UHGV virus genome: UHGV-0188094
Strand: one strand, 5' to 3'
DNA length: 22,873 nt
From: a virus
Positions within the stretch are counted from its first letter, which is position 1. Each line of letters begins with the position of its first letter. The notes beneath the pieces are model-generated. The model did not search any database, was not told where the DNA came from, and was given only the letters and a program-made list of their open reading frames with translations. Below, in pieces: positions 215-17,260 of the stretch. The position numbers and the translations under genes are program-made.

Positions 215-577
215 GGGGCTGATTCTGGATTCGACGGGATTTGCGAAACCCAAGGTGCATGCCGAGGGGCGGTTGGCCTCGTAAAAAGCCGCAAAAAATA
301 GTCGCAAACGACGAAAACTACGCTTTAGCAGCTTAATAACCTGCTTAGAGCCCTCTCTCCCTAGCCTCCGCTCTTAGGACGGGGATCAAGAGAGGTCAAA
401 CCCAAAAGAGATCGCGTGGAAGCCCTGCCTGGGGTTGAAGCGTTAAAACTTAATCAGGCTAGTTTGTTAGTGGCGTGTCCGTCCGCAGCTGGCAAGCGAA
501 TGTAAAGACTGACTAAGCATGTAGTACCGAGGATGTAGGAATTTCGGACGCGGGTTCAACTCCCGCCAGCTCCACCA
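215..577 (+). ncRNA. ssrA: tmRNA (SsrA), full length, 363 nt
   Basis: Starts GGGGCTGATTCTGGATTCGACGGG and ends ...CGCCAGCTCCACCA, the conserved tmRNA ends. The internal tag reading frame gcaaacgacgaaaactacgctttagcagcttaa encodes ANDENYALAA-stop, the enterobacterial SsrA degradation tag. Confidence 0.97.
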
Positions 578-581
578 AATA
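533..581. repeat. attL: 49-bp direct repeat covering the 3' end of ssrA (left copy)
   Basis: By manual alignment, 533..581 is identical to 15820..15868; identity breaks on both sides (532 g vs 15819 t; 582 a vs 15869 t). Confidence 0.85.
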
Positions 582-587
582 AATCAA

Positions 588-620
588 GGGGTTACGTGAA
601 AGCGTAGCCCCTTTTTCTTT
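588..620 (+). terminator. Rho-independent terminator following ssrA, lying in element-derived sequence
   Basis: Stem ggggttacg / cgtagcccc (one G-U pair), loop tgaaag, then TTTTTCTTT at 612..620. It starts just after the repeat ends at 581. Confidence 0.6.
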
Positions 621-700
621 GGTAGTGGCGGCAAAATGGCGACAGACTATTGCGTCCATCTTGCCTATCGCCATCTTGAAATCATGCAAAGAGGTTTCAC

Positions 701-1183
701 ATGGAAGAACTTCACTTTGTTTACATCAATGCAAATGGTCGTATCGGTGTTCACTCAATACAGAGCATCAGTTATAGCGAAAATCATATACAGGGCATTT
801 GTAAGAACACCGATCGAATAAAAACCTTCCGAAAAGACCGCATTCTTAAACAGTACGATTCACCAGAACAAGCCATTCAGGAATGCGCGTCATTCCTCCC
901 CGAAAACTACTCACATCTCACTAAGCAGTCTGGTCCGAAAAAAAATACATTCGATGTGTGTTTCACCGGATTTAAGAAAGCAGATAAAGAAAGATTGGTT
1001 GATAAGGCGAATGAACAAGGATTAACGGTAAGAGCCTCTGTAACCCAAAGCCTTCAGATGCTCTGTTGCGGTTACAATGCAGGCCCATCGAAAGTATCGG
1101 CAGCCAGGATGAAAGGCACAATCATCATAGATGAGCCTGGCTTTATACATTTTCTTGAAACGGGTGAGATCCCAGATGAATAA
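701..1183 (+). CDS. Hypothetical protein (160 aa); C-terminal half reads like a BRCT-type fold (tentative)
   Basis: ORF with RBS AGAGG about 6 nt upstream of the ATG. The C-terminal stretch FDVCFTGF...GLTVRASVTQSLQMLCCGYNAGPSKVSAARMKGTIIIDE resembles BRCT domains by eye only. Lies between attL and ogr. Confidence 0.5.
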   Translation: MEELHFVYINANGRIGVHSIQSISYSENHIQGICKNTDRIKTFRKDRILKQYDSPEQAIQECASFLPENYSHLTKQSGPKKNTFDVCFTGFKKADKERLVDKANEQGLTVRASVTQSLQMLCCGYNAGPSKVSAARMKGTIIIDEPGFIHFLETGEIPDE

Positions 1184-1211
1184 AAACCTGCCGTAGCAGG
1201 TTCTCTTTCTC
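1182..1211. terminator. Candidate bidirectional terminator between the convergent 160-aa ORF and ogr
   Basis: Hairpin aacctgc-cgta-gcaggtt (1185..1202), flanked by an A-run upstream and a T/C-rich run downstream, so it gives a U-tract on either strand. Confidence 0.5.
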
Positions 1212-1428
1212 AAAAATTCATATGCCCCTGACCACCTGGCAATGGATGTGGAGGAGCAGTAGCAATCAGTGCGGGTGTCACAATAAACCGGACCACTGTT
1301 TCATGGGTAACAAAAGTGCTCCCGCAGTTAATATTTTGGCACTGGCAGTAACGCTCTTTGGTGCTTTCAGTTACTTGAAAACTGCTCCTTGTGTGTGCCG
1401 CATGACCACATTTTGGACAATTCATCAT
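1210..1428 (-). CDS. ogr: Ogr/Delta-type zinc-finger late transcription activator (about 72 aa)
   Basis: MNCPKCGHAAHTRSS...TKERYCQCQNINCGSTFVTHETV...PHPLPGG closely parallels phage P2 Ogr (C-x2-C ... C-x4-C zinc finger, HPLP tail). Start chosen at the internal Met pair rather than the ORF-track start at 1473. Confidence 0.85.
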   Translation of the reverse strand: MMNCPKCGHAAHTRSSFQVTESTKERYCQCQNINCGSTFVTHETVVRFIVTPALIATAPPHPLPGGQGHMNF

Positions 1429-1496
1429 ATCCAGATCCCTACCTTTGCTATCAGAATCATTGTAATGATACACATAATATCAATATTGAGAACACT

Positions 1497-2597
1497 TTAT
1501 TCCATTTCAAGATCATCAATCCTCACTTCAAGCTCCAGACTGGTCGTAAAACCGTTATCCGGGCTGACGGTATGCGTCAGAGTCGTAATGGTCCATTCCG
1601 CATCATCTATCGGCTGTTTAAAACCACTGACTTTCACTGGCATTTCCGTGTAGAGATCTGCCCGACCTTCCGCCAGTTGTAGCGAGAATGACGCAACGCC
1701 GCGTTGCAGGCGTTCCCACTGCATTTTCGCTGCCCGTTCAGCGTTACTCCGATTAGCATAGGTGCGATTAAGTACCAGCACGTTTTCATCCGTACCCACC
1801 AGGTAATCGCCCTGCTTCGCTTCCGGCTCTTTCTTCTGCTTCTTAGTCCTGCGCTTACGCTTCACCGTAGTGCTTTCTTTCTTCGCGGGTTCGCGGGTAT
1901 GCAACCAGCTGGCAATTACGCCCGTGTAGGCTCCGCGATCTGCCAGGGTAAAGCGGTGGCTGTCGCCGTCCTTGCGTGTGATAGTGATCACTGGCAGAGG
2001 TTTACCGCTGGCGCTTTTGCCCTGTCCCTGCCGGATGAATAACAGATTGCCATTTTTCACCGACGCAATAGCACCGTACTGGCGCGCCAGCCGCATCAAA
2101 AAACTGCCGTCACTCTCATTGGTCTGGTCTATATGATCCACGGGCTTATCCGACAGATCTTTACCCAATGCCATCTTCAGTTTGTGCCGCGCAGCTATTT
2201 CCTTCACCACTTCCCCAACGGTGGTCTTGTGCCACGACTTTTCACGGCGGGTATTCAGCGTTTCCCGAAAATCAGCACTTCGCGCCCGGATAGTCAGTCG
2301 GTCCGGTGCGCCAGTGTGTTCAATCTCGTCCACCGTGAATGCCCCTTTCGGGAAAAGCGGCTGCCCCTTCCAGCCCAGCGCCAGCGTAATGACCGCACCA
2401 CGGCGCGGCAGCACTATTTTTCCATCGGCGTCGTCCAGCTCCAGATCAAGCTGGTCCGCTTCAAAGCCCCGGTTATCCGTCAGCGTCAGCCTCATCAGGC
2501 GGTTATCCAGCACAGTGGTGATATCCCTGCCCTCAATACTGATGCTGAATGCGGGAGTTTTGTTGCCTTTGTTAAGCAGTTCAGAGCTGAAATTCAC
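1497..2597 (-). CDS. P2 gpD-like tail protein (late gene D), 366 aa
   Basis: Full-length ORF directly upstream of ogr, as in P2 (D-ogr). GTG start overlaps the gpU stop (GTGA). The gpD identification is from recalled family resemblance plus synteny. Confidence 0.8.
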   Translation of the reverse strand: MNFSSELLNKGNKTPAFSISIEGRDITTVLDNRLMRLTLTDNRGFEADQLDLELDDADGKIVLPRRGAVITLALGWKGQPLFPKGAFTVDEIEHTGAPDRLTIRARSADFRETLNTRREKSWHKTTVGEVVKEIAARHKLKMALGKDLSDKPVDHIDQTNESDGSFLMRLARQYGAIASVKNGNLLFIRQGQGKSASGKPLPVITITRKDGDSHRFTLADRGAYTGVIASWLHTREPAKKESTTVKRKRRTKKQKKEPEAKQGDYLVGTDENVLVLNRTYANRSNAERAAKMQWERLQRGVASFSLQLAEGRADLYTEMPVKVSGFKQPIDDAEWTITTLTHTVSPDNGFTTSLELEVRIDDLEME

Positions 2598-3037
2598 GAC
2601 ATCAGCCCTCCCACCGTTTTACTGATATCGCTTAAGGCAGATGTTGCCGTTTCCTGCAGATTATTCAGTTGCGCACTGAGATCACCGAACATATCGGACA
2701 GGGATTCATCCACCCGTTTGAGCGACAGGGTGAACTCAATCCGGCGCGGCATACCGTCGCGGAAAAACTCCGTTTTAGTCTGATTCAGTCCCTCAATCAC
2801 ATACATGCCGTAAATCGTGCCGCTGCCTTCAATCAGAGGCCATGCTTTCCCCTGTTCTGCCATCTGCTCCAGTGCCAGCAACGACAGCCTGCCGCCTGTT
2901 ATCTCCGGCATAAGAACACCGGAAAGCGTCAGCATGTCGTTTTCCGGTCCCAGAAACTGCGTGGACGGACGTCGGTTTACCCGACTGTTTGCCGCATGTC
3001 GCCAGCTGCGTTGATACTGCAGTTGTCTTCCTGCCAG
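2594..3037 (-). pseudogene. P2 gpU-like tail protein, 5'-truncated by a deletion junction
   Basis: The frame reads ...QLQYQRSWRHAANSRVNRRPSTQFLGPENDMLTLSGVLMPEITGG... and continues upstream of the ATG at 2935 to a stop at 3050..3052. gpU-like sequence begins near 3025; upstream of that the sequence belongs to the gpN fragment in another frame. Confidence 0.6.
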
Positions 3038-3639
3038 TAGATGGACAGGTTATCCAGACGGGTGATCAGCAGCGCATTCGGCGGGAAGAACGGCGCACGC
3101 ACGGCCTGCAGGCCACCCATGCGTTTCTGGCTGATGATCATATCGGCAGCCAGTTTTTCACTGTTTTCCTGCTCTTTGTTGACCAGCGGGAAATACTTGT
3201 CAGACAACAGTTCACGACCGCAAATCACCACCAGACCGTCATCGTCCTGGTAAACCACGTCGATAAGCTCATTGACGGCATCCATCACCACAGCGTCCAG
3301 GTTGGCATATTCGCCACCTTTCCCGACTTTCACCGCACCCGGAGTGGTTTCACCGCCCGTGGTGGTGCTGCCCATGACGTGATCCGGTGCATCCTCACGG
3401 ATTTTCTGCAGCCAGCCTTTGTTCACATCCTGCAGCAGCGGGTTTTCGCTACGGTTGGAGGTTTTCGCACGCTTCACGCCGTTAAAGCCGATCATGATGC
3501 GGTCCAGTGCCTGACGTTTCACGATGGCGTCACGGATGCGCACCTGGAAATCCTGAAACTTCGCCCACAGATCCAGCTTCGCGTAGGTCAGCACCGTGTC
3601 AAAGTTGGTCTGCTCGCATTTATATTCCACATCGACCAT
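2977..3639 (-). pseudogene. P2 gpN-like major capsid protein fragment (internal portion only)
   Basis: Translation YKCEQTNFDTVLTYAKLDLWAKFQDFQVRIRDAIVKRQALDRIMIGFNGVKRAKTSNRSENPLLQDV...VGKGGEYANLDAVVMDA...ISQKRMGGLQAVRAPFFP...NLSIY matches the middle of P2 gpN. The N-terminal third or so is absent and the last 19 residues are read from gpU DNA in another frame. Confidence 0.7.
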
Positions 3640-3651
3640 CAGGGTCGGATC

Positions 3652-4320
3652 GGTGAAGTGATCGCCCTTGAGCCTGCGCTGGCAAAATACACCCGACGCG
3701 GATTAGACCTGGATACCTACTGGTTTGTGCAATACGGTATGACAACCCAGCCGTATCAGTTCACGAAAGGCAGCATTTTTCATCTGATGGAACCGGATAT
3801 TAATCAGGAGATCTACGGCCTGCCCGGTTATCTTTCTGCCATTCCGTCAGCCCTGCTCAACGAGTCCGCCACGCTGTTCCGTCGCAAGTATTACATTAAC
3901 GGCAGTCATGCGGGCTTTATCATGTACATGACCGATGCCGCGCAAAACCAGGAGGATGTGAACAACCTCCGCAATGCGATGAAAAGCGCCAAAGGGCCGG
4001 GCAACTTCCGCAACCTGTTTATGTACTCACCTAACGGCAAAAAGGACGGGCTTCAGATTATCCCGTTATCAGAAGTCGCAGCGAAGGATGAGTTTCTGAA
4101 TATCAAAAATGTTAGTCGCGATGACATGATGGCGGCACACCGCGTTCCGCCGCAAATGATGGGGATTATGCCTAATAATGTCGGGGGGTTTGGGGATGTG
4201 GAGAAGGCTAGTAAGGTTTTTGTGATAAATGAATTAATTCCTTTGCAAAAACGATTTAGAGAAATTAATGCATGGCTCGGGGAAAAACTTATAGAATTTT
4301 CTCCATATGAGCTTAACTAA
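3652..4320 (+). pseudogene. P2 gpQ-like portal protein, C-terminal fragment (about 222 aa) fused to the gpN fragment
   Basis: Only the last third of the 443-aa ORF-track entry 2989..4320 is real coding sequence (LEPALAKYTRRGLDLDTYWFVQYGMTTQPYQFTKG...RKYYINGSHAGF...); the rest is antisense to gpN. Opposite-strand placement next to N and next to the cos-like site fits gpQ in a reversed P2 map. Confidence 0.55.
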
Positions 4321-4328
4321 AATATTAG

Positions 4329-4358
4329 TTGCCAGTACCGTATTGTTGCTACTGGCAA
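4329..4358. terminator. Hairpin between the convergent gpQ fragment and the ATPase gene (candidate terminator)
   Basis: Perfect 9-bp arms ttgccagta / tactggcaa with a 12-nt loop, flanked by AT-rich sequence. Confidence 0.35.
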
Positions 4359-4369
4359 TTGTAATAAAA

Positions 4370-6379
4370 TTACAAATATGTGTTGCTATGTAGAGATGTG
4401 TTTATTCCATCTTTTATCTCAATTTTTGACGAAGCATACTCATCATTCGCACTATCATCTATATCAAACTCATCTTGTAGATGAAGTGACTCATTTAACG
4501 GTTTATAAAACTCACCCATCATCATTTTGTAATGGGCAGTATGCTCACTACATTCAAATATCTTCTGAAAAACAATTAAATATTTTTGCACAGACTCCGT
4601 ATCTAAATTCATATAAAGATCATCACCTGCAAAATGGGAACCATCATTAATCCATGATACTAAAGATTTAAATATGATTTTTTCATCACCATAAAAATGA
4701 CACTCAAGCTTCCTAATATCCATCCCACCTAATATCTTAAAGTAATTCTCCAAAATCCTTCGCATTGTATTTTGTATAGTATTATTATTAATGTCTGTTC
4801 TTCTCAATTCGCACCAGAGCAAATCATAAGACGTTTTTATTGGGTTTGATTCGCACTTTTCAAGATATGAAACCTTCCCTTTTTTCCTTACAATCCAAAA
4901 AGTCTCCTCTTTCATTGCTTGATTACCGGATCTTTTGGTATTAAAAGTCAACTCTTTATGAAAATAAATATTATGAGTAAGGAATATAATTTGCTTAATA
5001 TTTCCTTCATCCTTACGAACATCCTCCATTAAATCTTTAATCAACGAACTTACAATAAACAGAATATCACTATCTAAACTTGAAATTGGATCATCAAATA
5101 CTACAACACGATCATCTAAAACACCTGATGCATTATCACTCCCTCTAACAAGGCTATAAAAGTACAAAAAAGTGATAAATGTCTTTTCTCCCTCACTAAG
5201 GGTTGTACGAGCATTATCTCCACTATCTCTCACTATCATATAATGCTTTTTATCTTCGGAGGGTTTTAAGTAAAAATTTTTGAAGCCATAAGAGTCCAGA
5301 ATCTTGTTAATTTTTGTAATAGTTGGAAGAGTACTGGTTTTATTAGACTCAATTGCCTCAATAGCCGAAGTATTTAACATTAACTTCTTTTTGTCTTCTT
5401 CTATCCCAGATTTAAGTCCTTGTAACGTCCTATTAAATTTATCAGATTTGCTACGGTAAGAAGTTATTTCAGACTTTAACTCCACCTTTACGATATATGC
5501 CCATATCTGCTTAGAAAGATTACTAGCCTCTACCTTTCTATTACTATGTATTTTGTTATTATTATCTATCAATAGATTTGAATCATTCAAAAAAGAAATA
5601 AAATCATCAACAACTTCACTTAAGTCACTAAAATGAACTGATTCACTTAAAAAATTGCGTTTATTTTTTGCCAATTCAAAATTCTTGTTTAATTCAGATA
5701 ATACTATCTTAGCCTTATCCTCAAACACTTCATAATTTATGAATGGAGATTTAATCGCCCTTATATCATCTATCGCCTTCAAGATATTATTAAGTTGATA
5801 TTCATATTGTAAAACCAATGCATCGATTTCTCTTTTTTTTAACTCATATGTTTTATCAAAATATGATGAAAGATTATCAAATATATTATCATTTACATCC
5901 TGCTGGCAGAATGGGCACTTGGGATTAGATTTATTGAAATATGTTAAACCCTCCTTAACCCAATCACTGTTATTGAGCATTGTAATTAAGTCTGAAACAC
6001 TAACGTCTTTTTTCCCTAGAATACGCTCACTCCAAATTTCCCTACTCAAAATATCATCTATCCCATTGAAGGATGGAATTGTAATTGATACATGTGATGT
6101 CAATTCAGTAGAAAAAACAATTTTTGCTTTCTCAATTAACTCTGCTATTGAGCAAACTTCTGATGTATTATTTTCATACTCAGCCAACACTCTGGCTTTA
6201 AATTTTTCACTACTATTCCTTAATCCCTCAAAAGCCTTTGAGAACACATTGTCATGTTTTACTTTTTGCTTCCAACATGAATCTTTAAAAGATTTTTCAT
6301 GGTCTTCGATTTTTTTAATAACGCCTAATTCATTATCACCACCATCTATTAACTTTTCCTTTGCTATAATAGATTCCAT
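4370..6379 (-). CDS. ABC-type (PrrC/RloC-like, AAA_13-like) ATPase, C-terminal 669-aa part: CPFC motif, coiled-coil insert, LSEGEK signature, Walker B/D-loop, H-loop, and a C-terminal putative effector domain
   Basis: CPFC at aa 155-158; K/E/N-rich predicted coiled coil at about aa 175-380; TLSEGEK (aa 393-399); VVVFDDPISSLD (aa 425-436); FLTHN (aa 466-470). The C-terminal roughly 200 aa contain R540-x3-E544 followed by His 561 and His 582. Very AT-rich compared with the flanking phage genes. Confidence 0.65.
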   Translation of the reverse strand: MESIIAKEKLIDGGDNELGVIKKIEDHEKSFKDSCWKQKVKHDNVFSKAFEGLRNSSEKFKARVLAEYENNTSEVCSIAELIEKAKIVFSTELTSHVSITIPSFNGIDDILSREIWSERILGKKDVSVSDLITMLNNSDWVKEGLTYFNKSNPKCPFCQQDVNDNIFDNLSSYFDKTYELKKREIDALVLQYEYQLNNILKAIDDIRAIKSPFINYEVFEDKAKIVLSELNKNFELAKNKRNFLSESVHFSDLSEVVDDFISFLNDSNLLIDNNNKIHSNRKVEASNLSKQIWAYIVKVELKSEITSYRSKSDKFNRTLQGLKSGIEEDKKKLMLNTSAIEAIESNKTSTLPTITKINKILDSYGFKNFYLKPSEDKKHYMIVRDSGDNARTTLSEGEKTFITFLYFYSLVRGSDNASGVLDDRVVVFDDPISSLDSDILFIVSSLIKDLMEDVRKDEGNIKQIIFLTHNIYFHKELTFNTKRSGNQAMKEETFWIVRKKGKVSYLEKCESNPIKTSYDLLWCELRRTDINNNTIQNTMRRILENYFKILGGMDIRKLECHFYGDEKIIFKSLVSWINDGSHFAGDDLYMNLDTESVQKYLIVFQKIFECSEHTAHYKMMMGEFYKPLNESLHLQDEFDIDDSANDEYASSKIEIKDGINTSLHSNTYL

Positions 6380-6705
6380 TAGCTTATTTTTTCTTCTTTA
6401 AGAGATATTAGTTTCTCTTCATCCTCCTTAAGATCGCTACCAAGGGTAAATACACCTTTAATTTTATCTTGACTAAAATTTCTTTCAACAAAATCTTTAT
6501 TATATACGTAGCTTATTAAAGATATATTATTTTTCCATTTAATCGGACATGTTGGATATTGTTCAGGGTCATTAATAATTTTACTTATAGTTGTTTTACC
6601 TGCACCATTAGCTCCATATAAATAGTTAAATTTAGAAAGTCCATGTAAAAGCTGCGTAGGGCCATTATATGAGCCTACCTTGTCAATAACTACCTCTTCA
6701 ATCAT
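6379..6705 (-). CDS. N-terminal Walker-A part (108 aa) of the same ABC-type ATPase, separated from the downstream ORF by a frameshift (TAATG overlap)
   Basis: P-loop YLYGANGAGKTT at aa 28-39; RBS GAGGA upstream of the ATG at 6705. The stop TAA shares its last A with the ATG of the 669-aa ORF. One extra A in the A6 run (6387..6392 on the plus strand) would fuse the two into a single ORF of about 778 aa. Confidence 0.6.
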   Translation of the reverse strand: MIEEVVIDKVGSYNGPTQLLHGLSKFNYLYGANGAGKTTISKIINDPEQYPTCPIKWKNNISLISYVYNKDFVERNFSQDKIKGVFTLGSDLKEDEEKLISLKEEKIS

Positions 6706-6840
6706 CCTCTAATCCTCAAAAAACAGATTAATCCTATCAAATCAATGATAATAGAAGACATTACTTACCTAATTACAAGGTGATCATTTATACAGCTGTA
6801 AATAAATCAGGCTAATCATCTATTTGTCATAACGCGCGCT

Positions 6841-6859
6841 CGTATCCCCGCCACGCCTG
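6841..6859 (-). other. cos-like site (186-type cohesive-end core), inverse orientation
   Basis: The reverse complement of 6846..6857 is GGCGTGGCGGGG, which equals the first 12 nt of the 186 cohesive end as I remember it (GGCGTGGCGGGGAAAGCAT). The downstream bases diverge. Confidence 0.45.
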
Positions 6860-6901
6860 CCCGCTTTATGTAGTGGTTTTCATGCACCTGCATGATCTAC
6901 G

Positions 6902-6926
6902 CAAAAGCCCGCCAGTTCTGGCGGGC
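6902..6926 (-). terminator. Rho-independent terminator for the leftward A / tum-like / DinI-like transcript
   Basis: On the minus strand: stem GCCCGCCAG ... CTGGCGGGC followed by TTTTG (plus-strand aaaagcccgccagttctggcgggc). Confidence 0.65.
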
Positions 6927-7061
6927 CTTAGCAAAAACGATCCTCAAACGATCATGCGATCTCATGCGGCATAGACATGCACTACAGAGCTAACGCCTCG
7001 CAAGGGCTCGTTGTTCAACCTTGCTGACGCCAGAAGCAAGTTCAGACGCCAGCAACGTTTC

Positions 7062-7295
7062 TTAATGCAGCCAGCTGTCGTCTTCCCACACCTTCTGCAT
7101 AATTTTCATCACTTGTTTTCTTTCTTCGTCCAGTTGCAGTCCGGTTAGTTCCACACCGTTAGAGCTACCTTTGCGAATGCGAATTACCGTTTTGGGATAC
7201 AGGGGGCGCAGATTGCGGTAAAGCTCGGATTCAAGGGCGTCCAGGGTAGACTGGCTAATCTTCTGCTCTTTATCGATCATTATTTCAATGCGCAT
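7062..7295 (-). CDS. DinI-family protein (77 aa), as in the SOS-induced Tum/DinI modules of 186-like phages
   Basis: MRIEIMIDKEQKISQSTLDALESELYRNLRPLYPKTVIRIRKGSSNGVELTGLQLDEERKQVMKIMQKVWEDDSWLH follows the DinI pattern (MRIE..., hydrophobic core, C-terminal W and acidic tail). RBS GAGGTG lies upstream of this internal Met. Confidence 0.75.
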   Translation of the reverse strand: MRIEIMIDKEQKISQSTLDALESELYRNLRPLYPKTVIRIRKGSSNGVELTGLQLDEERKQVMKIMQKVWEDDSWLH

Positions 7296-7305
7296 AAAAG
7301 TCACC

Positions 7306-10062: not shown

Positions 10063-11018
10063 GCACGTACTCCGTACACGGCAGAACTATCCACGCCACG
10101 CGAATAATCAAATCCCACCCAGCAGCGCGGCCCGGAAACAGCGATGATTTCTGTTGCAGATTTACTCTCACCAGCTGCTACGCCGATGCTGCGTTTTGCC
10201 TTGATGTAGTGGTGAGTAAAATTGCGATACAGCGAACGGATCAGGGATGTGTCACTGTTAGAAATAATGACCGGATGTCCTTCTGATGACCGATGTTCAA
10301 GAACGGATGCCAGGTGATACTGGTCATCTTCAGTGAAGCCGTCAGTGTGATAACCGGAAAACGTGCCGTCATACGGCGGATCGCAATACACCACATCCCC
10401 CGCCTTCAACATCGCCAGCGTTTCATCAAAGCTGGCGCAGATAAACGTTGCCCGCTGGGCTTTTTCTGCAAATGCGCGAATTTCTTTTTCAGGAAAATAC
10501 GGATTTTTATAATTACCGTAGGGAATGTTGAAATGCCCGCTCTTGTTATAGCGACATAAACCACGGTAACCGTGACGATTGAGATACAGGAAATATACCG
10601 CTTTCATGAAATCAGTAATTTCAGTTGAGTAATTAAACTCCTGCCTTATGTTGTAATAAGCCACCTCCCTGTTTGCTTCCTCAAATAAAGCTCTGGCGCG
10701 AGATATAAACGATTCACAATCAGCAGCAACCTTTTTATAGAGGTTGATTAAATCAGGATTAATATCCGCAACAAGATAGCTGGGGTAGTGGATCTCCTGC
10801 GCTTCGTTCTGGATTGCTTCAGCGGTCACACGCAGCAGTTCTGCCGCTTCGACGTGGTTTAGCTGGCGGGATGTGATATGACACGCAAGACTATCAAGGC
10901 GGGCAGCCATTGCTTCAGCCCTTGCCCGGCGTTCTTCCAGACGAGCCTCTGTCAGTAAAATATTAAGCCCTGCGTCATCCGGTCCGATTTTAGTCGTGAG
11001 GGTTTCAATATTACGCAT
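10059..11018 (-). CDS. Dam-like N6-adenine DNA methyltransferase homolog with a replaced N-terminus that lacks the AdoMet-binding motif I
   Basis: The region [15 protein letters not shown]...[36 protein letters not shown]...[17 protein letters not shown]...PVIISNSD aligns to E. coli Dam from about residue 50 onward, including the DPPY catalytic motif. The first roughly 85 aa are Ala/Glu-rich helical sequence with no FxGxG or W-GGK motif. Start taken at the ATG at 11018 (RBS AGGAGA). Confidence 0.7.
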
Positions 11019-11085
11019 AATCAATTCTCCTGAATTTAGATAAAGGGATGCCCGGCGGGTTTACGCCATTAATTTCATTAGCTGG

Positions 11086-11427
11086 TTAATTCGGCATGGT
11101 TAGCCGTCTGGGAAATAAGCTCACCACTGCACGAAAATGATTCATTGCTTTAATCAACTCCCGCTTTTCGTCAGTGGTCAGCTCATTAATGCTGATGCTA
11201 TGACGTTCAGCTGGAATTTTTGCCATAAAGAATATGGCAGCCAGTGCCCGTTTATTTTGTTCGCTATTAATATCCCGTGGATCACGCATATCTTTAATAA
11301 ACCGCTCAAGCTCTGACTCAATATTAAGACCAAAAACTTTCGCTCTTAATTCCGCAATGTGATTAAGTCCATTCAGGCGTTCACCGGGGCTTAATGGAAC
11401 AGTCGCCGCAGCGCCTTCAATAGCCAT
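11086..11427 (-). CDS. Hypothetical phage early-region protein (113 aa)
   Basis: ORF with RBS GGGGGA 4 nt upstream of the ATG, in the early rightward operon between cII/fil and A. Confidence 0.5.
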   Translation of the reverse strand: MAIEGAAATVPLSPGERLNGLNHIAELRAKVFGLNIESELERFIKDMRDPRDINSEQNKRALAAIFFMAKIPAERHSISINELTTDEKRELIKAMNHFRAVVSLFPRRLTMPN

Positions 11428-11591
11428 TTGTTCCCCCGTTTTTTCGTTGATAGTTCTGCCAACAATTCATCTTGCGAACGGCACGGATGCCAGCGTTTAC
11501 CATCCTCACCCATGATCCAGCCGTGACCGTAGTGCATTGCCGGACTTTGTTTTACCAGCAGCGATGCAAATGATGGTTCTTTCGTCAGCAT
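11391..11591 (-). CDS. Small early-region protein (66 aa), at the position of 186 fil
   Basis: Internal Met (MLTKEPSFASL...) with RBS GAGGTG; starts 8 nt after the cII stop. Overlaps the next ORF by 37 nt in a different frame. Function is assigned by position only. Confidence 0.4.
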   Translation of the reverse strand: MLTKEPSFASLLVKQSPAMHYGHGWIMGEDGKRWHPCRSQDELLAELSTKKRGNKWLLKALRRLFH

Positions 11592-11598
11592 AAGCACC

Positions 11599-12108
11599 TC
11601 ACAGCAAACCGAATGAAGCACCGAGGCCAGTCACGGTATCAACTGCACTCGCCATCGCAGGATTAGCCTGTAAACGGGCCTGCAATGAAACAGCCGCCAG
11701 CGCCATCAGTCGTGTAACAGAGTTAATGCTGCTGATCGCATCACGACGGCCTGCACTGGTTTTTACATCGCCAGAAACCGCACCTGCCGCAACACGCCCG
11801 ATCTCTGCGGTTGCACTCATGACGTAATGTGGCAGTTTCTCTTTTGCTACCTCATTAATCGGTACACATGGCAGGCAGTGAATCTGTGCCAGAAAACCAT
11901 CTATCAGCGTTGAGTCTTCTGTCAGATCGGTAAGCAGCCAGATTTCTGGCGCATTGAGCTGATGCGGTTGATCTGGGTTGAGTTTGTTTCGCAGTGTCTG
12001 AACATTCATTCCTGCACGTTCTGCCAGCTTCGCCATATTGTGATGTAGTGCAAAAGCTCTACAGGCTTCATCAAAATGCGGGTGTTTGGAAATCTTATAA
12101 TCAAACAT
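11599..12108 (-). CDS. cII: 186 CII-like transcriptional activator (169 aa)
   Basis: Same length as 186 CII; N-terminal HTH region ...AKLAERAGMNVQTLRNKLNPDQPHQLNAPEIWLLTDLTEDSTLIDGFLAQIHCLPC...; sits after apl as in 186. Confidence 0.8.
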   Translation of the reverse strand: MFDYKISKHPHFDEACRAFALHHNMAKLAERAGMNVQTLRNKLNPDQPHQLNAPEIWLLTDLTEDSTLIDGFLAQIHCLPCVPINEVAKEKLPHYVMSATAEIGRVAAGAVSGDVKTSAGRRDAISSINSVTRLMALAAVSLQARLQANPAMASAVDTVTGLGASFGLL

Positions 12109-12140
12109 GCTACCCCCTTAGAAAGTTCTCATAATTGAAC

Positions 12141-12383
12141 TTACTTACCAACAATGACGCGGAAGTTGGAATGACCGAGGGATTCACGGACCTGATCGGT
12201 TTTGTACATTAAATAACGCAGGCTTACGCGGCCTTTGTTTTTTTCTTTCTTGACCATGTATTTAGCAAGCTGACCATGGTGAATTTTTTGATACACGGAG
12301 CCGCGGGAGATACCTTCCCATTCCGCGAACTCAGCAGGCGTTGCCATCTCTTTTGGTACACGAATTGAAATATCAGTACTCAT
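12141..12383 (-). CDS. apl: Apl/Cox-type excisionase and switch regulator (80 aa)
   Basis: Small HTH protein (ATPAEFAEWEGISRGSVYQKIHHGQL), first gene of the operon divergent from cI, as with 186 apl and P2 cox. Confidence 0.65.
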   Translation of the reverse strand: MSTDISIRVPKEMATPAEFAEWEGISRGSVYQKIHHGQLAKYMVKKEKNKGRVSLRYLMYKTDQVRESLGHSNFRVIVGK

Positions 12384-12499
12384 AGTGCAGTATCTCTTAG
12401 TTTGGTTTCGTTTTATCTTGTTTTATGTGGTTTGGTTTTGCTTTTCAAACCATAAATGGATATTAGGATCACTTTTTATATACGTCAAGAGGTTTGATT
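12384..12499. promoter_or_regulatory. Divergent promoter/operator region of the lysis-lysogeny switch (pR/pL analog)
   Basis: 116-bp intergenic region between the divergent apl and cI genes, with iterated ggttt/gttttg motifs. Individual promoter hexamers were not resolved. Confidence 0.5.
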
Positions 12500-13132
12500 A
12501 TGAGTTTAATAAAGGCGGGAAATGATAGTGGTGGGCGCGATGCAATTAACAGGCTTATTAAGGCTTACAACTTCAGCTCACGACAGCAGCTCTGCGAACA
12601 TCTGGAAGTATCAAAAAGCACTATGGCTAACAGATACTTAAGGGATAGCTTTCCTGCCGAATGGGTAATTCAATGTGCCCTTGAAACAGGAGCTTCCCTT
12701 CTATGGCTGGCTACTGGTCAAGGAGATATGTATGCGTGTGAGAACGAAGAAACAAATCTCAAAAATGAACCTCCTGTCACTGTAAGACCACTTTCTAAGA
12801 TCGTTGCTCCTAGCATCAAACGTGTTGAACTGAAGAACGGCGAACTGCAGCCAAGTGATGAAATTCTTCTTGATAGCAGCCTGCTCGATGGTGACTCATC
12901 CAACGCTTTATTTGTTAAAACAGCTAATAATAGCTTTGTAGTGGATACGTCCGTTAAACAAGTCAGTAATGGCTTCTGGTTAGTCGATATGGACGGAGTT
13001 AAAAGCATCGTTAAAATTGCGCGCATACCCGGAAACAAAATAGTAGTTAACCAAGATGACACTTCATTTGAATGTTCTGTAGATGATGTGGAAGTCGTAG
13101 GACGTGCAGTCAAAGTAATCAAGAACCTCTAA
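12500..13132 (+). CDS. cI: CI-type immunity repressor, two-domain (186 CI-like), about 210 aa
   Basis: N-terminal HTH (SSRQQLCEHLEVSKSTMANRYL...) resembling P2 C and 186 CI, plus a C-terminal domain. ATG at 12500 is preferred over the TTG at 12494 because of the RBS AAGAGG 7 nt upstream. Co-oriented with and just upstream of int. Confidence 0.7.
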   Translation: MSLIKAGNDSGGRDAINRLIKAYNFSSRQQLCEHLEVSKSTMANRYLRDSFPAEWVIQCALETGASLLWLATGQGDMYACENEETNLKNEPPVTVRPLSKIVAPSIKRVELKNGELQPSDEILLDSSLLDGDSSNALFVKTANNSFVVDTSVKQVSNGFWLVDMDGVKSIVKIARIPGNKIVVNQDDTSFECSVDDVEVVGRAVKVIKNL

Positions 13133-13135
13133 CTT

Positions 13136-14155
13136 ATGACCATCAGAAAACAGCCGAACGGAAAATGGTTGTGTGAGTGCTATCCCAATGGACGCAATGG
13201 TAAGCGCGTGCGTAAGCAATTTGCTACCAAAGGCGAAGCCATTGCGTTTGAAAGCTTCACAATGGAAGAAGTGAACAAAAAACCGTGGTTAGGAGAAAAG
13301 GATGATCGGCGACACCTATCAGAATTAATTGAGCTTTGGTATTCCCTGTATGGTCAGACACTCGCAGACCCCAAGCGCCTCATGGCGAAACTTAGAATTA
13401 TCTGTAATGGTCTAGGCGACCCCATCGCCTCAGAACTGACAGCCGGTGACTTTACGAAATACCGCGAAGCACGGTTAAAAGGTGAAGTACGAAATGAAGA
13501 TGGGACGCTTATGTCGCCCGTTAAGCCCCGCACGGTAAACCTCGAACAGCGCAATCTATCATCGGTGTTCGGTACATTAAAAAAACTAGGACACTGGTCA
13601 GCACCAAACCCGCTGGCAGGACTTCCAACCTTCAAAATTGCCGAAGGTGAGCTGGCTTTTCTTTCCATGGACGAAATCAAGCGCCTGTTGGCTGCATGTG
13701 CTGAATCTCAAAGCCCCAGCTTATTAATGATTGCCAAAATATGTTTGGCTACCGGCGCACGTTGGAGCGAAGCCGAAAACCTGCATGGCCACCAAATATC
13801 GAAATACCGAATTACTTATATAAAGACAAAAGGTAAGAAAAACAGAACAGTACCGATATCACAGGAACTATATGACGAACTCCCCAAGCACAGAGGGAAG
13901 TTATTCACGCCATGCAGAAAAGCCTTTGAGCGTGCAGTAAAGCGGGCCGGTATTGAACTTCCGGAGGGGCAATGCACCCATGTATTACGTCATACATTCG
14001 CCAGCCATTTTATGATGAACGGCGGAAACATACTGGTACTACGCGATATTCTGGGCCATGTGGATATAAAAATGACGATGATTTATGCCCACTTTTCCCC
14101 TGACCACCTAGAAGATGCGGTAACAAAAAACCCACTGTTTAATTTAAAATGGTAA
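13136..14155 (+). CDS. int: P2/186-type tyrosine integrase (339 aa)
   Basis: N-terminus ...GRNGKRVRKQF..KGEA.AFE... and C-terminal motifs ...ATGARWSEA..., ...HVLRHTFASHF..., ...GHVDIKMTMIYAHF parallel P2 Int (R, H-x-x-R, catalytic Y). Confidence 0.85.
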   Translation: MTIRKQPNGKWLCECYPNGRNGKRVRKQFATKGEAIAFESFTMEEVNKKPWLGEKDDRRHLSELIELWYSLYGQTLADPKRLMAKLRIICNGLGDPIASELTAGDFTKYREARLKGEVRNEDGTLMSPVKPRTVNLEQRNLSSVFGTLKKLGHWSAPNPLAGLPTFKIAEGELAFLSMDEIKRLLAACAESQSPSLLMIAKICLATGARWSEAENLHGHQISKYRITYIKTKGKKNRTVPISQELYDELPKHRGKLFTPCRKAFERAVKRAGIELPEGQCTHVLRHTFASHFMMNGGNILVLRDILGHVDIKMTMIYAHFSPDHLEDAVTKNPLFNLKW

Positions 14156-15690
14156 ATTTAACGATGAAAAGATTGAAATCAGTTTCCGATGCAGTTATCC
14201 AACTCAGATTAAATGCGGTAAAAGCAAGTATTCAAAGCGTCAATCCAAACGAGTTTATAACACATTGCCTTGATTATAACCTCCAGAAATTTAACAATCA
14301 GCTTGAAATGTTACAACACCTACCATGGGTTGTGAATTTATGCATTAAATGGTCCGCCAGTGCGCTGGGTAAAAAACGGAAATTTAAACATATTGACAGA
14401 CCTGGTGCTGTCAGGTTGCTACAACGAGCATATGAGGAACTAAGTATAATTCCAACTGGTCTGGAAAATATAGACAAAGGGATTAACTTTTTCCTTAGAA
14501 ATACGTTATATCAACAAGGTATTTATCAAAGATTAGATGCTTTAAATACAATTAGCAGACAAGTTTTCTTGTTTTCTTCCTTAGATGACAACAATAGAAT
14601 CAAGCGTAGATTCAAAGAACTTACTGATGTTGATATAAACGATTTTCTAAAACTATCATTTGTGTTAGTATCACTCGTTACCTTACAAGCACCAGTAAAG
14701 AAAATAACAATAGATTCTTTCGCAGCTCTTTACTCCGTAATACCTAAAGATACAATCGAGAAATTTCTGAATACTATATCTATCCCTTACGAAGAACTAG
14801 CTCGGTTTTGCTGTACAAAAGATAATGAGACACCTTTAGTAGAATATTATGCTCCATCGCCTTTCTTAGAAAAACCTTTCATCAAATTCGAAGGAAATTA
14901 TCACCAAATACATACGCAGCTAACTTCGACCAGTATACAAACCTTTATATATGATTTGCTTCGCAGAGATGATGCAGAATCGTTCATGGACAAATTTGGG
15001 CGAGTTTTCGAAAATGCAGTCAACCAGCTATTAGATGAAAGTGGAATTGCTTATATTGCTGAAGGAAATTTAAAAGAATATCTACCTCAAGAGAATAAAG
15101 TTGTAGATTTTCTACTACCTCATGATGAAGCTAACATTTTCATCGATGCTAAAGGTGTTGAGATAAACCAAAAGGGAATGGTTACACTACGACCAGGGGA
15201 TATTTCTGCCAATATAAAAAGCTCCGTATTAAAAACTATAGAACAAGCACACTCAGTAAATAGAGAGCTAATTAAAAAAGGTAACCAAAATTTTTCTTTT
15301 AAAAAAGAGTCCTACATTTTATGTCTTACTTATAAAAATTTATTCCTTGGAAATGGTACATTTCTAAATAAATCCTATGCTAACATCGAAATGAAAAAAA
15401 TCCGAGATAGGCATTCAGAAGAATATCAAATACCTGATGAGAACATTTTCTGCATATCATTTGAGGAATTCGAGTATCTGCTATCTTCTTGCAAGGAATA
15501 CTCAAAACCTGTACATGAGGTACTGCGAGAAGCTGTAGTTAGAAACCAAACACCATCAAGTGCAGTTTTCCTTTTTGCACATCATATCCGTGACTCATTC
15601 CCCAAAATACGTTCATCTGAGATCGTCAGGCTCGCAGGCTTGAGCGAGATCAACCATATCGTTGAACGATTAGAGCAAGCTGGCTCTTGA
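14149..15690 (+). CDS. Cargo protein (513 aa) with a central PD-(D/E)xK-like nuclease motif; function unknown, candidate defense or abortive-infection factor
   Basis: AT-rich ORF whose ATG overlaps the last codons of int. Candidate motif E305 ... VVD320FLLP ... IFID333AK335 (about 15046..15170). No family recognised by eye. Confidence 0.55.
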   Translation: MVNLTMKRLKSVSDAVIQLRLNAVKASIQSVNPNEFITHCLDYNLQKFNNQLEMLQHLPWVVNLCIKWSASALGKKRKFKHIDRPGAVRLLQRAYEELSIIPTGLENIDKGINFFLRNTLYQQGIYQRLDALNTISRQVFLFSSLDDNNRIKRRFKELTDVDINDFLKLSFVLVSLVTLQAPVKKITIDSFAALYSVIPKDTIEKFLNTISIPYEELARFCCTKDNETPLVEYYAPSPFLEKPFIKFEGNYHQIHTQLTSTSIQTFIYDLLRRDDAESFMDKFGRVFENAVNQLLDESGIAYIAEGNLKEYLPQENKVVDFLLPHDEANIFIDAKGVEINQKGMVTLRPGDISANIKSSVLKTIEQAHSVNRELIKKGNQNFSFKKESYILCLTYKNLFLGNGTFLNKSYANIEMKKIRDRHSEEYQIPDENIFCISFEEFEYLLSSCKEYSKPVHEVLREAVVRNQTPSSAVFLFAHHIRDSFPKIRSSEIVRLAGLSEINHIVERLEQAGS

Positions 15691-15819
15691 TTGCACAATT
15701 GCAAATTGGCGACAAATTGGCGGCAGAGCATTAAAAATGCGTAAAATAAACAAACACCAAATAATACTAATATGCTGTTTTAAAACATAAATATATGTTT
15801 TTATCATAATAATAATGGT

Positions 15820-15868
15820 ATGTAGGAATTTCGGACGCGGGTTCAACTCCCGCCAGCTCCACCAAATA
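15820..15868. repeat. attR of the P2/186-type prophage and attL of the downstream island: second copy of the 49-bp ssrA 3' end
   Basis: Identical to 533..581. Confidence 0.85.
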
Positions 15869-15898
15869 TTGATGTACTGAAGTTCAGTAAAGTCTACT

Positions 15899-15933
15899 AA
15901 GCCCGCACAGCACAAGCTCTGCGGGCTTTTTTA
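15899..15933 (+). terminator. Rho-independent terminator after the second ssrA 3'-end copy
   Basis: Stem gcccgcacag...ctctgcgggc followed by TTTTTT (15927..15932). Confidence 0.6.
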
Positions 15934-16030
15934 CGTCTATTGTAGTCTAGTGAGAATTGCTGAGAACTACGAGTTATGGCACCCTGAATGGGACCCACGA
16001 AGATGGGTCCTAAAATCGAGGGTCCCAAAC

Positions 16031-17260
16031 ATGGCCAAAATCGCTAAGAAGCTCACTGACACTGAAATCAAAAGCACCAAACCTGCCGAAAAAGAGGTTA
16101 ACCTTTTTGACGGCGATGGTTTGCTGTTGCGAATCGCTCCCCTGGCGAAGGGAGGGAAGAAAAATTGGTATTTCAGATATGCAGTGCCTGTGACCAAAAA
16201 GCGAACTAAGGTGAGCTTAGGAACCTATCCTCACCTTACACTTGCGAAGGCACGAGCTTTACGTGATGAATACTTGTCGTTGCTTACAAATGGTATAGAC
16301 CCCCAAGTTCATAACAACCAAAAAGCCAATGCACTGAAAGATGCCACGGAACATACATTTCAAGCAGTAGCCAAGAAGTGGCTTGATGAGAAAGTCAAAA
16401 CGTCAGGCATCTCCCAAGATCATGCTAACGACATCTGGCGAAGCCTAGAGAGAAATATCTTTTCCACATTGGGTGATACCCCAATTAAGGAGATTCGCCC
16501 TAAAATGCTTAAACAGCATTTAGAACCCATAGAAAAACGAGGTGTCCTTGAAACACTTCGCCGCATCATATCCCGCCTGAATGAAATTTTCCGCTATGCA
16601 GCAACAGAAGAACTCATAGAATTCAACCCGGCAGACAACCTGGGGCAACGGTTCAGCAAGCCAAAAAAACAGAATATGCCAGCATTACCCCCTTCCGAAC
16701 TCCCTCGCTTCTTGGTTGCTCTAAACAATGCTTCTATCCGTTTGGAAACAAGGCTACTGATTGAGTGGCAACTTCTCACATGGGTTCGCCCAGGTGAAGC
16801 TGTTCGCACAAGATGGTCAGATATTGATATTGAAACTGGCATGTGGAACATCCCGGCGGAGTTTATGAAAATGAAGAAGCCTCACAAAGTTCCACTGAGC
16901 AAAGAAGCTTTGCGAGTTTTGGATTTAATGAAAGTCATCAGCGGGCATAGAGAGTGGGTGTTCCCCAGTATCAAAGCTCCACTCAATCACATGCATGAAC
17001 AAACAGCTAATGCGGCCATAATCCGTATGGGTTTCGGAGGTGAGCTTGTAGCTCACGGTATGCGATCCATTGCTAGAACGGCTGCTGAGGAGTCTGGCAA
17101 GTTTAGGACTGATGTCTTAGAAGCCGCCCTTGCCCACTCGAAGAAAGATGAAATAATTGCAGCCTACAATCGTGCAGAGTATCTCACTGAACGGGTGGTT
17201 CTCATGCAATGGTGGAGTGACTATGTTTCGTCTCAAAAATGCAAAGTTATTGCCGCATAA
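16031..17260 (+). CDS. P4-family tyrosine integrase (IntA/SlpA-like)
   Basis: MAKIAKKLTDTEIKSTKPAEKEVNLFDGDGL..., ...DIWRSLERNIF..., ...VPLSKEALRVLD..., ...HGMRSIARTA..., ...AYNRAEYLTERVVLMQWW are P4-integrase hallmarks. Start taken at the ATG at 16031; the ORF track's upstream GTG at 15950 would run into the terminator. Confidence 0.85.
   Translation: MAKIAKKLTDTEIKSTKPAEKEVNLFDGDGLLLRIAPLAKGGKKNWYFRYAVPVTKKRTKVSLGTYPHLTLAKARALRDEYLSLLTNGIDPQVHNNQKANALKDATEHTFQAVAKKWLDEKVKTSGISQDHANDIWRSLERNIFSTLGDTPIKEIRPKMLKQHLEPIEKRGVLETLRRIISRLNEIFRYAATEELIEFNPADNLGQRFSKPKKQNMPALPPSELPRFLVALNNASIRLETRLLIEWQLLTWVRPGEAVRTRWSDIDIETGMWNIPAEFMKMKKPHKVPLSKEALRVLDLMKVISGHREWVFPSIKAPLNHMHEQTANAAIIRMGFGGELVAHGMRSIARTAAEESGKFRTDVLEAALAHSKKDEIIAAYNRAEYLTERVVLMQWWSDYVSSQKCKVIAA

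Follow-up and report, generated by a model that had tools for sequence, protein, structure and literature searches.

Organization of the ssrA locus

The window, that is, the whole stretch of 22,873 nt that was analysed, contains one tmRNA gene, ssrA (positions 215-577, + strand), which was identified as intact by ARAGORN and encodes the tag ANDENYALAA; positions 1-645 are 99.5% identical to E. coli MS20649. A repeat search over the whole window revealed an exact direct repeat (49/49 nt) at positions 533-581 and 15820-15868 (both +), which is the longest repeat present and of which a 23-nt sub-pattern had no occurrence in 100 shuffles. The original prediction had described it as the 3′ 49 bp of ssrA occurring twice; the repeat is indeed exact over 49 nt, but ssrA accounts for only 45 of them. 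That is, it is made up of the last 45 nt of the gene, including in copy 1 the T arm (550-566, +) and the acceptor 3′ strand with the CCA (567-577, +), followed by AATA, and these final 4 nt are flanking sequence that is coincidentally alike in the two elements described below. With the same phage next to the native flank instead, the repeat has a length of 46 nt. Beyond both copies the sequence diverges at once on either side, and the repeat is therefore not part of a longer duplication, an alternative that had been raised with the original prediction and is ruled out here.

The two copies enclose a 15.3-kb remnant of a Fels-2-like prophage. Copy 1 (533-581) corresponds to its attL, the 49-mer being identical in the attP of Escherichia phage Cartapus, and copy 2 (15820-15868) represents both its attR and the former 3′ end of ssrA beside a genomic island with a P4-type integrase, i.e. 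the attL of that island. The prophage carries the Campbell/Islander signature: it is bounded by the intact target gene and a directly oriented, displaced 3′ fragment, and its integrase gene lies inside the repeat-bounded segment, near one end, and is full length with conserved catalytic residues.

Gene content and decay of the prophage

The element between the repeats is of the Fels-2/186 type, in line with the P2/186-type prophage originally proposed, but it is a deletion remnant and not a complete prophage (15.3 kb, compared with ~33-35 kb for phages of the Fels-2 group and 33.4 kb for Cartapus, the closest one). From the left, a 160-aa ORF located between attP and ogr (701-1183, +; PHROG 2561 'DNA ligase', weak BRCT) is conserved in Cartapus and is followed by the genes for the Ogr/Delta late-gene activator (1210-1473, -; Pfam PF04606, 1.5e-20), the gpD tail/baseplate hub (1497-2597, -; PF05954; collinear with Cartapus) and gpU (2594-3024, -; PF06995, partial). 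The latter is truncated at its 5′ end by a first deletion junction at ~3024, the point at which homology to Cartapus and MS20649 ends. An internal fragment of a P2-type major capsid gene (3024-3652, -; PF05125, profile positions 90-289 only), 99% identical to the capsid gene of ACN001, and a 3′ fragment of the portal gene (3650-4320, +) meet at a second junction at ~3650, with loss of the genes for scaffold and terminase and of the 5′ portion of portal. The late genes are thus reduced to ogr, D, the truncated U and the capsid and portal fragments, with terminase, scaffold, most of capsid and portal, lysis and the tail genes from T as far as the head genes missing.

The early and lysogeny module (CI, int, cox/apl, CII, fil, Dam, gpA), by comparison, is present and syntenic with that of Cartapus and the Fels-2 group, as is the ogr-D-U end. 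It comprises genes for the gpA replication endonuclease (7648-10062, -; PF05840, 2.5e-126), a DUF2732-Dam fusion made by a 355-bp deletion that removed a TraR/DksA-like gene (10059-11024, -), the early proteins DUF5347, Fil and CII (11086-12108, -), a Cox/Apl-like excisionase and repressor (12141-12383, -; PHROG 6912, 4e-39, and PHROG 575, 5e-28), a 186-type CI repressor (12494-13132, +; PF07022 and PF16452) and a full-length Fels-2/186-type tyrosine integrase of 339 aa (13136-14155, +). This integrase is 91% identical to that of Fels-2 and 95% to that of Cartapus/RE2010 (91-96% across the three), and residues R209, H282xxR285, H308 and Y317 are conserved. A 186/P2-type int had been placed at the far right end of the prophage; the gene is there, but a 513-aa ORF of low GC content (14149-15690, +; PHROG 14259, function unknown) separates it from attR. 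This cargo ORF, which gave no Pfam or PADLOC match, occupies a variable slot between int and attP that holds different genes in other phages. A second low-GC cargo locus (4370-6705, -) lies in the variable slot next to cos and encodes a candidate defence ATPase (AAA_13; PADLOC PDC-S06) split into ORFs of 108 and 669 aa, whereas the same slot holds a DUF262 gene in ACN001. The remnant thus differs from the Fels-2 group in the cargo of both slots. The cos region itself (6831-6889, -) has its counterpart where the two ends of the linear Cartapus genome are joined.

Segments of the prophage are only 86-99% identical to other prophages. None of the complete E. coli genomes covers at least 80% of the window, and the deletion junctions of the remnant in MS20649 differ from those seen here, which together favour independent decay over a circulating satellite. 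The remnant does retain perfect attL and attR sites, Int, Cox for excision, CI and CII for control, gpA for replication, cos for packaging in cis and the two low-GC cargo loci. Were it to act as a satellite-like mobile element that depends on a helper, packaging by a P2/186-like helper resident in the same cell, e.g. as a ~30.6-kb dimer, would be conceivable. Such a role, or else an action of the P4-type integrase on both copies of the nested core, which might remove the prophage or mobilise it jointly with the island, is regarded as very unlikely.

Attachment sites and terminators

An attP rebuilt by joining the right arm of the prophage to the core and the left arm matched free phage Cartapus in one piece (query 239-800, 94.3%), the flanks of the identical 49-mer in Cartapus corresponding to the sequences left of attR and right of attL in the window. 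In the Fels-2 record the same sequence is given as an attP of 47 bp, and the ends of Fels-2 match as well. Collinearity with Cartapus starts at the attP core and extends over positions 533-3024 (96.7%). A terminator-like hairpin at positions 586-613, followed by a T tract to ~623 (fold of -19.8 kcal/mol, z = -3.6), forms an intrinsic terminator (586-623, +) that is conserved in Cartapus and in the P′ arm of Fels-2. This collinearity and the contiguous attP of Cartapus confirm that the 3′ end of the tmRNA gene and its terminator, given as 588-620 in the original prediction, are now supplied by the prophage.

Just downstream, the P′ arm carries two TGGCGRCA direct repeats (626-644, +) that are conserved in Fels-2 and Cartapus and may represent arm-type binding sites of the phage integrase, and a second pair (15707-15725, +) is found in the P arm, the phage homology of which begins at 15707. 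The motif has six matches in the window against 1.27 expected, and four of the six are in the att arms. Fels-2 and Cartapus thus resemble the window in attP core, terminator and TGGCGRCA arm repeats alike.

On the other side of copy 2, a terminator supplied by the island (15900-15933, +; fold of -27 kcal/mol, z = -5.0) serves ssrA in strains that carry the island only, and is homologous to one located 3′ of ssrA in CP4-57 of E. coli K-12. Expression of the displaced ssrA fragment was also considered and dropped, as the promoter-like matches upstream of copy 2 (3, against 1.1 expected) are not meaningful.

The P4-type island

The integrase gene of the island (16031-17260, +) is intact and encodes a CP4-57 IntA-like tyrosine integrase of 409 aa with Arm-DNA-bind_3 (PF13356), Phage_int_M (PF22022) and Phage_integrase (PF00589) domains (WP_001062342.1 in relatives). 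It starts at ATG 16031, 162 bp past copy 2 and in agreement with the distance of about 160 bp first noted; an alternative GTG start at 15950 was rejected. The order of ssrA 3′ end (copy 2), element-supplied terminator and integrase gene is homologous to that in K-12, where the P4-type int of CP4-57 (IntA; attL in ssrA, attR = psaA) likewise lies ~160-200 bp 3′ of the ssrA end. The two integrases share the same domain architecture and 48% identity over their full length. The elements differ in that a prophage stands between ssrA and the island in the window, and in their cargo: CP4-57 carries alpA, yfjI, abpAB and rnlAB, whereas the island encodes a large serine recombinase (17543-19099, +), two ParB-like proteins (19089-20878, +) and a type I restriction-modification system, of which only the start of hsdM (22477 onwards, +) is reached before the window ends, together with an IS fragment (about 22054-22314). 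The cargo (17543-22873) continues beyond the window. No AlpA/Vis-type excisionase domain was found in the ORFs of that part (17543-22873), and the island, as far as the window covers it, does not fit a P4-like phage satellite, as only the integrase is P4-type and alpha primase-helicase, sid, psu, delta and cos were not encountered there.

The window ends before the island does, and no third fragment of ssrA that would represent the attR of the island was detected in it (≤3 mismatches in 23 nt; ≤1 in 11 nt). A displaced ssrA fragment is equally absent from the right end of the island in four inspected island-carrying relatives, including MS20649 and WCHEC020031. In these two strains the native flank ATCATGATTGG is also gone, because the island stops at an IS2 next to ygaQ. 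Extrapolating from such identical or near-identical relatives, the island of the window, whose right end lies beyond 22873, has probably lost its attR too. In E. coli C, a displaced ssrA fragment adjoins ypjA; its assignment to this island family is tentative, since int there is disrupted by an IS and the island is rearranged.

Overlapping recombination sites

The two integrases had been assigned to different families. Both are tyrosine integrases, but they belong to different subfamilies, have no BLASTP similarity to each other and differ in N-terminal domain architecture. The further proposal that they share one 49-bp att core is overstated, as the identity block represented by the 49-mer belongs to the Fels-2-type attP. 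In P4-type islands at ssrA, only ~13-14 nt from the very 3′ end of the gene are repeated, with an indel: the repeat reads CGCCAGC-CCACCAA in K-12 psaA and CGCCAGC--CACCAA in E. coli C, consistent with the short P4-type repeats in Table 1 of PMC10107115. In the same table, Fels-2, SopEPhi and SpaX are entered as elements with a P2 integrase whose insertion at ssrA does not alter the 3′ end. Judged from these alignments, the Fels-2-type and P4-type systems appear to use overlapping, nested sites rather than one common core. The 7-nt block CGCCAGC (564-570, +; second copy at 15851-15857) is common to the ssrA 3′ end and the P4-type displaced fragments (K-12 psaA, attR of E. coli C, Table 1 of PMC10107115), and is a candidate for the crossover segment of the P4-type integrase. 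The 45-nt block holds no polymorphism by which the Fels-2-type strand exchange could be placed.

Distribution among genomes and order of integration

Junctions at ssrA were surveyed by megablast (≥80% coverage) in 5426 complete E. coli genomes, giving the comparison with empty-site and single-element strains that had been suggested at the outset. Counted as genomes and not as independent events, i.e. uncorrected for phylogeny, ssrA is empty in 1389 (25.6%), joined directly to this island in 965 (17.8%), followed by the prophage and then this island in 64 (1.2%), and followed by the prophage and then the native flank in 96 (1.8%). The 64 genomes bear out the tandem arrangement, which is real but already well documented, and is found in dozens of public genomes. 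The exact ssrA-to-island junction, corresponding to the unoccupied attB, exists in the 965 island-only genomes, some of them 100% identical over 600 nt. Moreover, in prophage-free genomes with ssrA abutting the island, such as WCHEC020031, identity to window positions 15869-22873 reaches 100% (7005 nt). This phage type also occurs elsewhere with the 513-aa cargo protein and the P arm unchanged, bordering the native flank in CP100970.1 and the island flank in a metagenome contig.

For the order of arrival, the original prediction had named the island as the probable first occupant, or the reverse. The census, the identity of island-only genomes over 7 kb and the presence of the same phage on the native flank strongly favour the first of these options, with the phage inserting beside an island that was already in place. 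The reverse order, in which the phage entered an empty ssrA and the island then used the displaced 45-nt fragment at the prophage attR, could in principle have operated, since the displaced copy holds the whole P4-type core region (CGCCAGCTCCACCA) and might serve as attB, and prophage-only genomes exist (the 96 mentioned above). Against it, island-only genomes outnumber tandem ones 15 to 1 (965 to 64), some of them matching the flanks in the window perfectly over 7 kb. The island is IS-ridden and right-truncated in the four inspected carriers, which marks it as old, whereas the phage is polymorphic and an identical variant of it occurs on both kinds of flank. Phage occupancy is also similar on the two backgrounds (64/1029 with the island, 96/1485 at otherwise empty sites), as expected if the phage arrives second on either, and the reverse order thus appears very unlikely. 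These same figures led us to reject a shielding of ssrA by the island from phage integration.

That prophage and island form one composite element, moving as a unit with two integrases on a single mobile DNA, would agree with their adjacency in the 64 genomes and with one Klebsiella database 'phage' record that spans both integrases. Yet each part occurs alone with precise junctions (965 and 96 genomes, respectively), the free phages Cartapus and Fels-2 close on attP without island DNA, and the Klebsiella record, which is marked UNVERIFIED, contains an internal ssrA fragment that separates the two parts, a pattern pointing to an over-extended prophage prediction; a composite origin is therefore highly implausible. 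Nothing but the existence of the repeat speaks for its origin by chance or by a duplication independent of site-specific recombination. Such an origin has a practically negligible probability, given that a sequence of 22.9 kb would not be expected to contain an exact 49-mer repeat by chance, that the flanks diverge immediately and that the boundaries match the phage attP and the prophage-free junction to the base.

In a single scan of species-representative genomes, the Fels-2-type attR signature (AATGGT + 45 nt) was recovered at only five loci, in Enterobacter, Citrobacter (two), Klebsiella and Photorhabdus. The three with readable large ORFs (L013, L015 and L016) had no P4-type integrase downstream, and a further one (L012) contained no ORF of at least 250 aa.

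Proposed history of the locus

The locus very probably arose by two Campbell-type integrations, first of the island and then of the phage, at the 3′ end of the tmRNA gene of E. coli, with later decay of the prophage. In the older event, the island with the P4-type integrase would have recombined within the last ~14 nt of ssrA, supplying its own copy of the gene end and its own terminator. Its right end, together with the displaced ssrA fragment, may later have been lost through an IS-associated deletion in this lineage, so that the island is probably fixed in place. In the younger event, a Fels-2/186-like temperate phage (Peduoviridae), whose attP carries the last 45 nt of ssrA and a terminator of its own, would have entered the regenerated gene, between ssrA and the island. 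Strand exchange presumably took place somewhere inside the 45-nt identity block, possibly in the T-loop, which is flanked by the inverted arms of the T-stem. As a result, the functional 3′ end of ssrA and its terminator (to ~623) are now phage DNA, and the earlier 3′ end would have been moved to 15820-15868, directly before the island terminator and integrase gene. At least three deletions then removed most head, tail and lysis genes, leaving Int, Cox/Apl, CI, gpA, cos, ogr, D, the two perfect att sites and the two low-GC cargo loci.

Relation to other elements at ssrA

ssrA is a textbook integration hotspot of enterobacteria, and tandem occupancy of this gene by elements of different integrase subfamilies has been on record for two decades. 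The arrangement is nothing different in kind from the published ssrA arrays, in which several elements of different integrase subfamilies are stacked, and its importance extends little beyond correct annotation. Excision of CP4-57 is known to damage tmRNA, and excision of the present island, if it took place via a decayed attR, would probably do the same, while excision of the Fels-2-type remnant, if it can still occur, would restore ssrA exactly. In this strain the tmRNA gene owes its functional 3′ end and its terminator to the phage. The boundaries of the remnant lie exactly at 533/581 and 15820/15868; prophage predictors should keep remnant and island apart.

Relatives of the phage that integrate at ssrA include Fels-2 (Felsduovirus), SopEPhi, RE-2010, SEN8 and Cartapus (Peduoviridae). 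Among the defence-island hotspots of E. coli, the tmRNA locus is #9, and it is occupied by prophages, by P4-like satellites and by integrative mobilizable elements (IMEs) (PMC10121019). The Islander approach resolves tandem arrays (125 with at least two members), and ssrA is its most enriched target (PMC4383910). By the features it uses for such arrays, the prophage here has an integrase and a tDNA fragment, and the island an integrase and a left fragment (copy 2). In S. Typhimurium LT2, the P4-integrase element Stm27X and Fels-2 are both listed at ssrA (PMC10107115, Table 1), which suggests that they may be adjacent there. The junction census adds a simple population-level picture of the hotspot.

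The Klebsiella record referred to above, K. pneumoniae OK490418.1 ('phage Kp4865-2', UNVERIFIED), contains a Fels-2-like P arm, an ssrA 3′ fragment, a CP4-57-like flank and a P4-type integrase, and appears to merge a prophage with the neighbouring island. It presents the same tandem junction in another genus, but its island flank is of the CP4-57 type, identical to the sequence downstream of ssrA in K-12, and is not that of the island in the window.

Two elements in tandem at ssrA

ARAGORN located one tmRNA gene in the window (215-577, +), with the tag ANDENYALAA as in E. coli. A repeat search identified an exact 49-mer, at 533-581 (copy 1) and 15820-15868 (copy 2), as the longest direct repeat of the window; its 23-nt core did not occur in shuffled sequence. 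The 49-mer is made up of the final 45 nt of ssrA (T arm, 3′ acceptor strand and CCA) plus four flanking bases, AATA. Since the DNA flanking copy 1 and copy 2 is unrelated on either side, the repeat is a sharply bounded block, which excludes that the second copy belongs to a longer duplication. With the same phage beside the native flank, the repeat measures 46 nt. Four flank bases shared by chance account for the length of 49, and the true identity block between phage and host is the 45-nt end of ssrA; within it, the T-loop (555-561) is the putative site of the Fels-2-type crossover. Copy 1 is followed by a strong hairpin and T tract (586-623), different from the hairpin downstream of copy 2 (15900-15933).

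A hypothetical attP, made by joining the right arm, core and left arm of the element between the copies, was searched against phage genomes and found in one piece in the free Escherichia phage Cartapus (94.3% identity). There the 49-mer is identical and is flanked as in the window, by AATGGT to its left and by AATCAAGGGG with the terminator to its right; the same sequence is annotated as the 47-bp attP in the Fels-2 record. The motif TGGCGRCA was found six times in the window (1.27 expected), four of these in the att arms, as one pair in each (626/637 and 15707/15718). The paired repeats are direct and 11 bp apart (spans 626-644 and 15707-15725, +), with conservation in Fels-2 and Cartapus, and are plausible candidates for arm-type integrase binding sites.

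The original prediction also placed a P4-type integrase soon after the second copy, and a 409-aa integrase indeed starts at ATG 16031, 162 bp past copy 2. Its domains (Arm-DNA-bind_3, Phage_int_M and a catalytic domain) form the P4-type architecture; it is 48% identical over its full length to IntA of CP4-57, and BLASTP detected no similarity to the Fels-2-type integrase. The proposal that both integrases use one 49-bp core did not hold. In K-12, the P4-type repeat of CP4-57 (psaA, CGCCAGC-CCACCAA) is much shorter than the phage block, and the E. coli C island has CGCCAGC--CACCAA beside ypjA; many P4-integrase elements at ssrA show the same short pattern, while P2-integrase elements leave the ssrA end intact (PMC10107115, Table 1). 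These short repeats place the P4-type site nested inside the phage block and, as far as sequence comparison goes, the two are not coextensive; CGCCAGC at 564-570 and 15851-15857 is the candidate P4-type overlap. The displaced ssrA fragments beside ypjA were compared with the intact empty-site sequence CGCCAGCTCCACCA followed by ATCATG, using E. coli C (L003, 33932-33950), K-12 (L002, 22973-22986) and a further locus (L008, 485-500). They vary by lineage, lacking T in K-12 and TC in E. coli C, and island excision would therefore yield differing defective tmRNA ends.

Order of integration

Junction queries were searched against 5426 complete E. coli genomes, counting matches with at least 80% query coverage. 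This provided the comparison with empty-site and single-element strains: ssrA was empty and followed by the native flank ATCATGATTGG and ypjA in 1389 genomes, and directly joined to the window's island in 965. The Fels-2-like right arm and core were followed by the native flank in 96 genomes and by the window's island in 64. Phage occupancy is about 6% on either background. All 7005 nt of island in the window recur at 100% identity in prophage-free genomes that have ssrA abutting the island (e.g. WCHEC020031), whereas the prophage segments reach only 86-99% identity to any other prophage. A phage with the identical 513-aa cargo protein and P arm lies beside the native flank in CP100970.1, and in a metagenome contig it lies beside the island flank. 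Taken together, these observations indicate that the island is the older resident at ssrA and that the phage arrived afterwards, integrating between the gene and the island. Of the two orders originally allowed, this one stands; the reverse, with the phage first and the island after, is very unlikely given the junction census and identity comparisons, and so is a single composite element made of prophage and island.

The tandem arrangement, correct in substance and with its history now resolved, is ordinary and already known. PMC4383910, PMC10121019 and PMC3603311, all of which cite Williams 2002 and 2003, describe ssrA as a hotspot recognised long ago, where several integrase subfamilies of independent origin insert, and tDNA tandem arrays have been catalogued. 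Fels-2 and a P4-integrase element are both listed at ssrA in S. Typhimurium LT2 (PMC10107115, Table 1), and Klebsiella record OK490418.1 ('Klebsiella phage Kp4865-2', UNVERIFIED) has the same junction type as the window. At 2100-2700 of that record, a Fels-2-like attR leads into a CP4-57-like island that encodes a P4-type integrase itself, and the flank matches DNA downstream of K-12 ssrA exactly; the record appears to be a prophage over-extended across a tandem array.

The neighbouring island

Downstream of the integrase lie a large serine recombinase, two ParB-like genes, an IS fragment and a type I restriction-modification system running off the window. No P4 satellite genes or AlpA-type excisionase were found among the island genes within the window; by gene content, the neighbour is an island whose integrase is of P4 type, rather than a P4-like satellite. 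The serine recombinase (518 aa) and two paralogous ParB/RepB-like genes (298 aa each), at 17543-20878 (+) directly after the integrase, were found in each of the five island-bearing relatives with annotation examined, minimal island remnants (ETEC M9682-C1) among them, and gave no PADLOC system match. A degenerate IS3-family transposase fragment (22054-22314) precedes the start of hsdM (22477-22873). Beyond the window's reach, the island in relatives goes on through hsdS, hsdR, IS1, a gene with ankyrin repeats and IS2 up to the ygaQ pseudogene, and the ypjA-ileY segment is deleted in these relatives. The island terminates at an IS element beside ygaQ in four of four relatives (MS20649, ACN001, ETEC M9682-C1 and WCHEC020031), and neither a displaced ssrA fragment nor the native flank was found in MS20649 and WCHEC020031. 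The island is probably immobile in the window's lineage.

The prophage remnant

Pfam and PHROG searches identified a Fels-2/186-type gene set between the repeat copies: a 160-aa ORF, ogr, gpD, a 5′-truncated gpU, an internal capsid fragment and a 3′ portal fragment; then a split low-GC AAA_13/PDC-S06 gene, DinI, gpA and a DUF2732-Dam fusion; and finally DUF5347, Fil, CII, a Cox/Apl-like excisionase, CI, a 339-aa integrase and a 513-aa low-GC ORF. Set against Cartapus, the full-length relative ACN001 and a second remnant (MS20649), the element shows at least three deletions, at the gpU-capsid junction (~3024), at the capsid-portal junction (~3650) and at 10787, where a TraR-like gene is gone. 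The last, of 355 bp, removed the TraR/DksA-like gene that lies between the DUF2732 and Dam methylase genes in relatives, fusing these in frame (10059-11024, -). The remnant measures 15.3 kb versus 33.4 kb for Cartapus and cannot produce virions. The P2-type cos region (6831-6889, -) is intact despite deletion or truncation of the neighbouring portal/terminase genes. The full-length integrase shares 91% identity with Fels-2 Int and 95% with Cartapus/RE2010 Int, and its R, HxxR, H and Y residues are conserved. Retention of att, Int, Cox, gpA and cos makes a helper-dependent satellite-like element conceivable, if highly improbable; the same remnant was not found elsewhere among complete E. coli genomes, and other remnants carry different deletions (MS20649 compared).

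The slot between the portal remnant and cos is variable, with a DUF262 gene in ACN001, a DUF4145 gene in Cartapus and, in the window, the AAA_13/PADLOC PDC-S06 candidate defence ATPase (4370-6705, -; ~30% GC; weak PrrC similarity). The latter consists of 108-aa and 669-aa ORFs overlapping by 1 nt, and represents a pseudogene split by a frameshift or else a true two-gene form. The int-attP slot holds the 513-aa ORF (14149-15690, +; ~33% GC; PHROG 14259, function unknown), which had no Pfam or PADLOC match. In Cartapus a RES/NAD+-domain protein is encoded at this position, and the ORFs found there in MS20649, ACN001 and the Citrobacter prophages are different again and unrelated. The slot is highly variable and resembles a hotspot for morons or defence genes in Fels-2-like phages. 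Between attP and ogr, the 160-aa ORF (701-1183, +) shows weak BRCT similarity and belongs to PHROG 2561 ('DNA ligase'), and its C-terminus matches PADLOC PDC-S48; Cartapus retains this ORF, with the annotation putative exonuclease.
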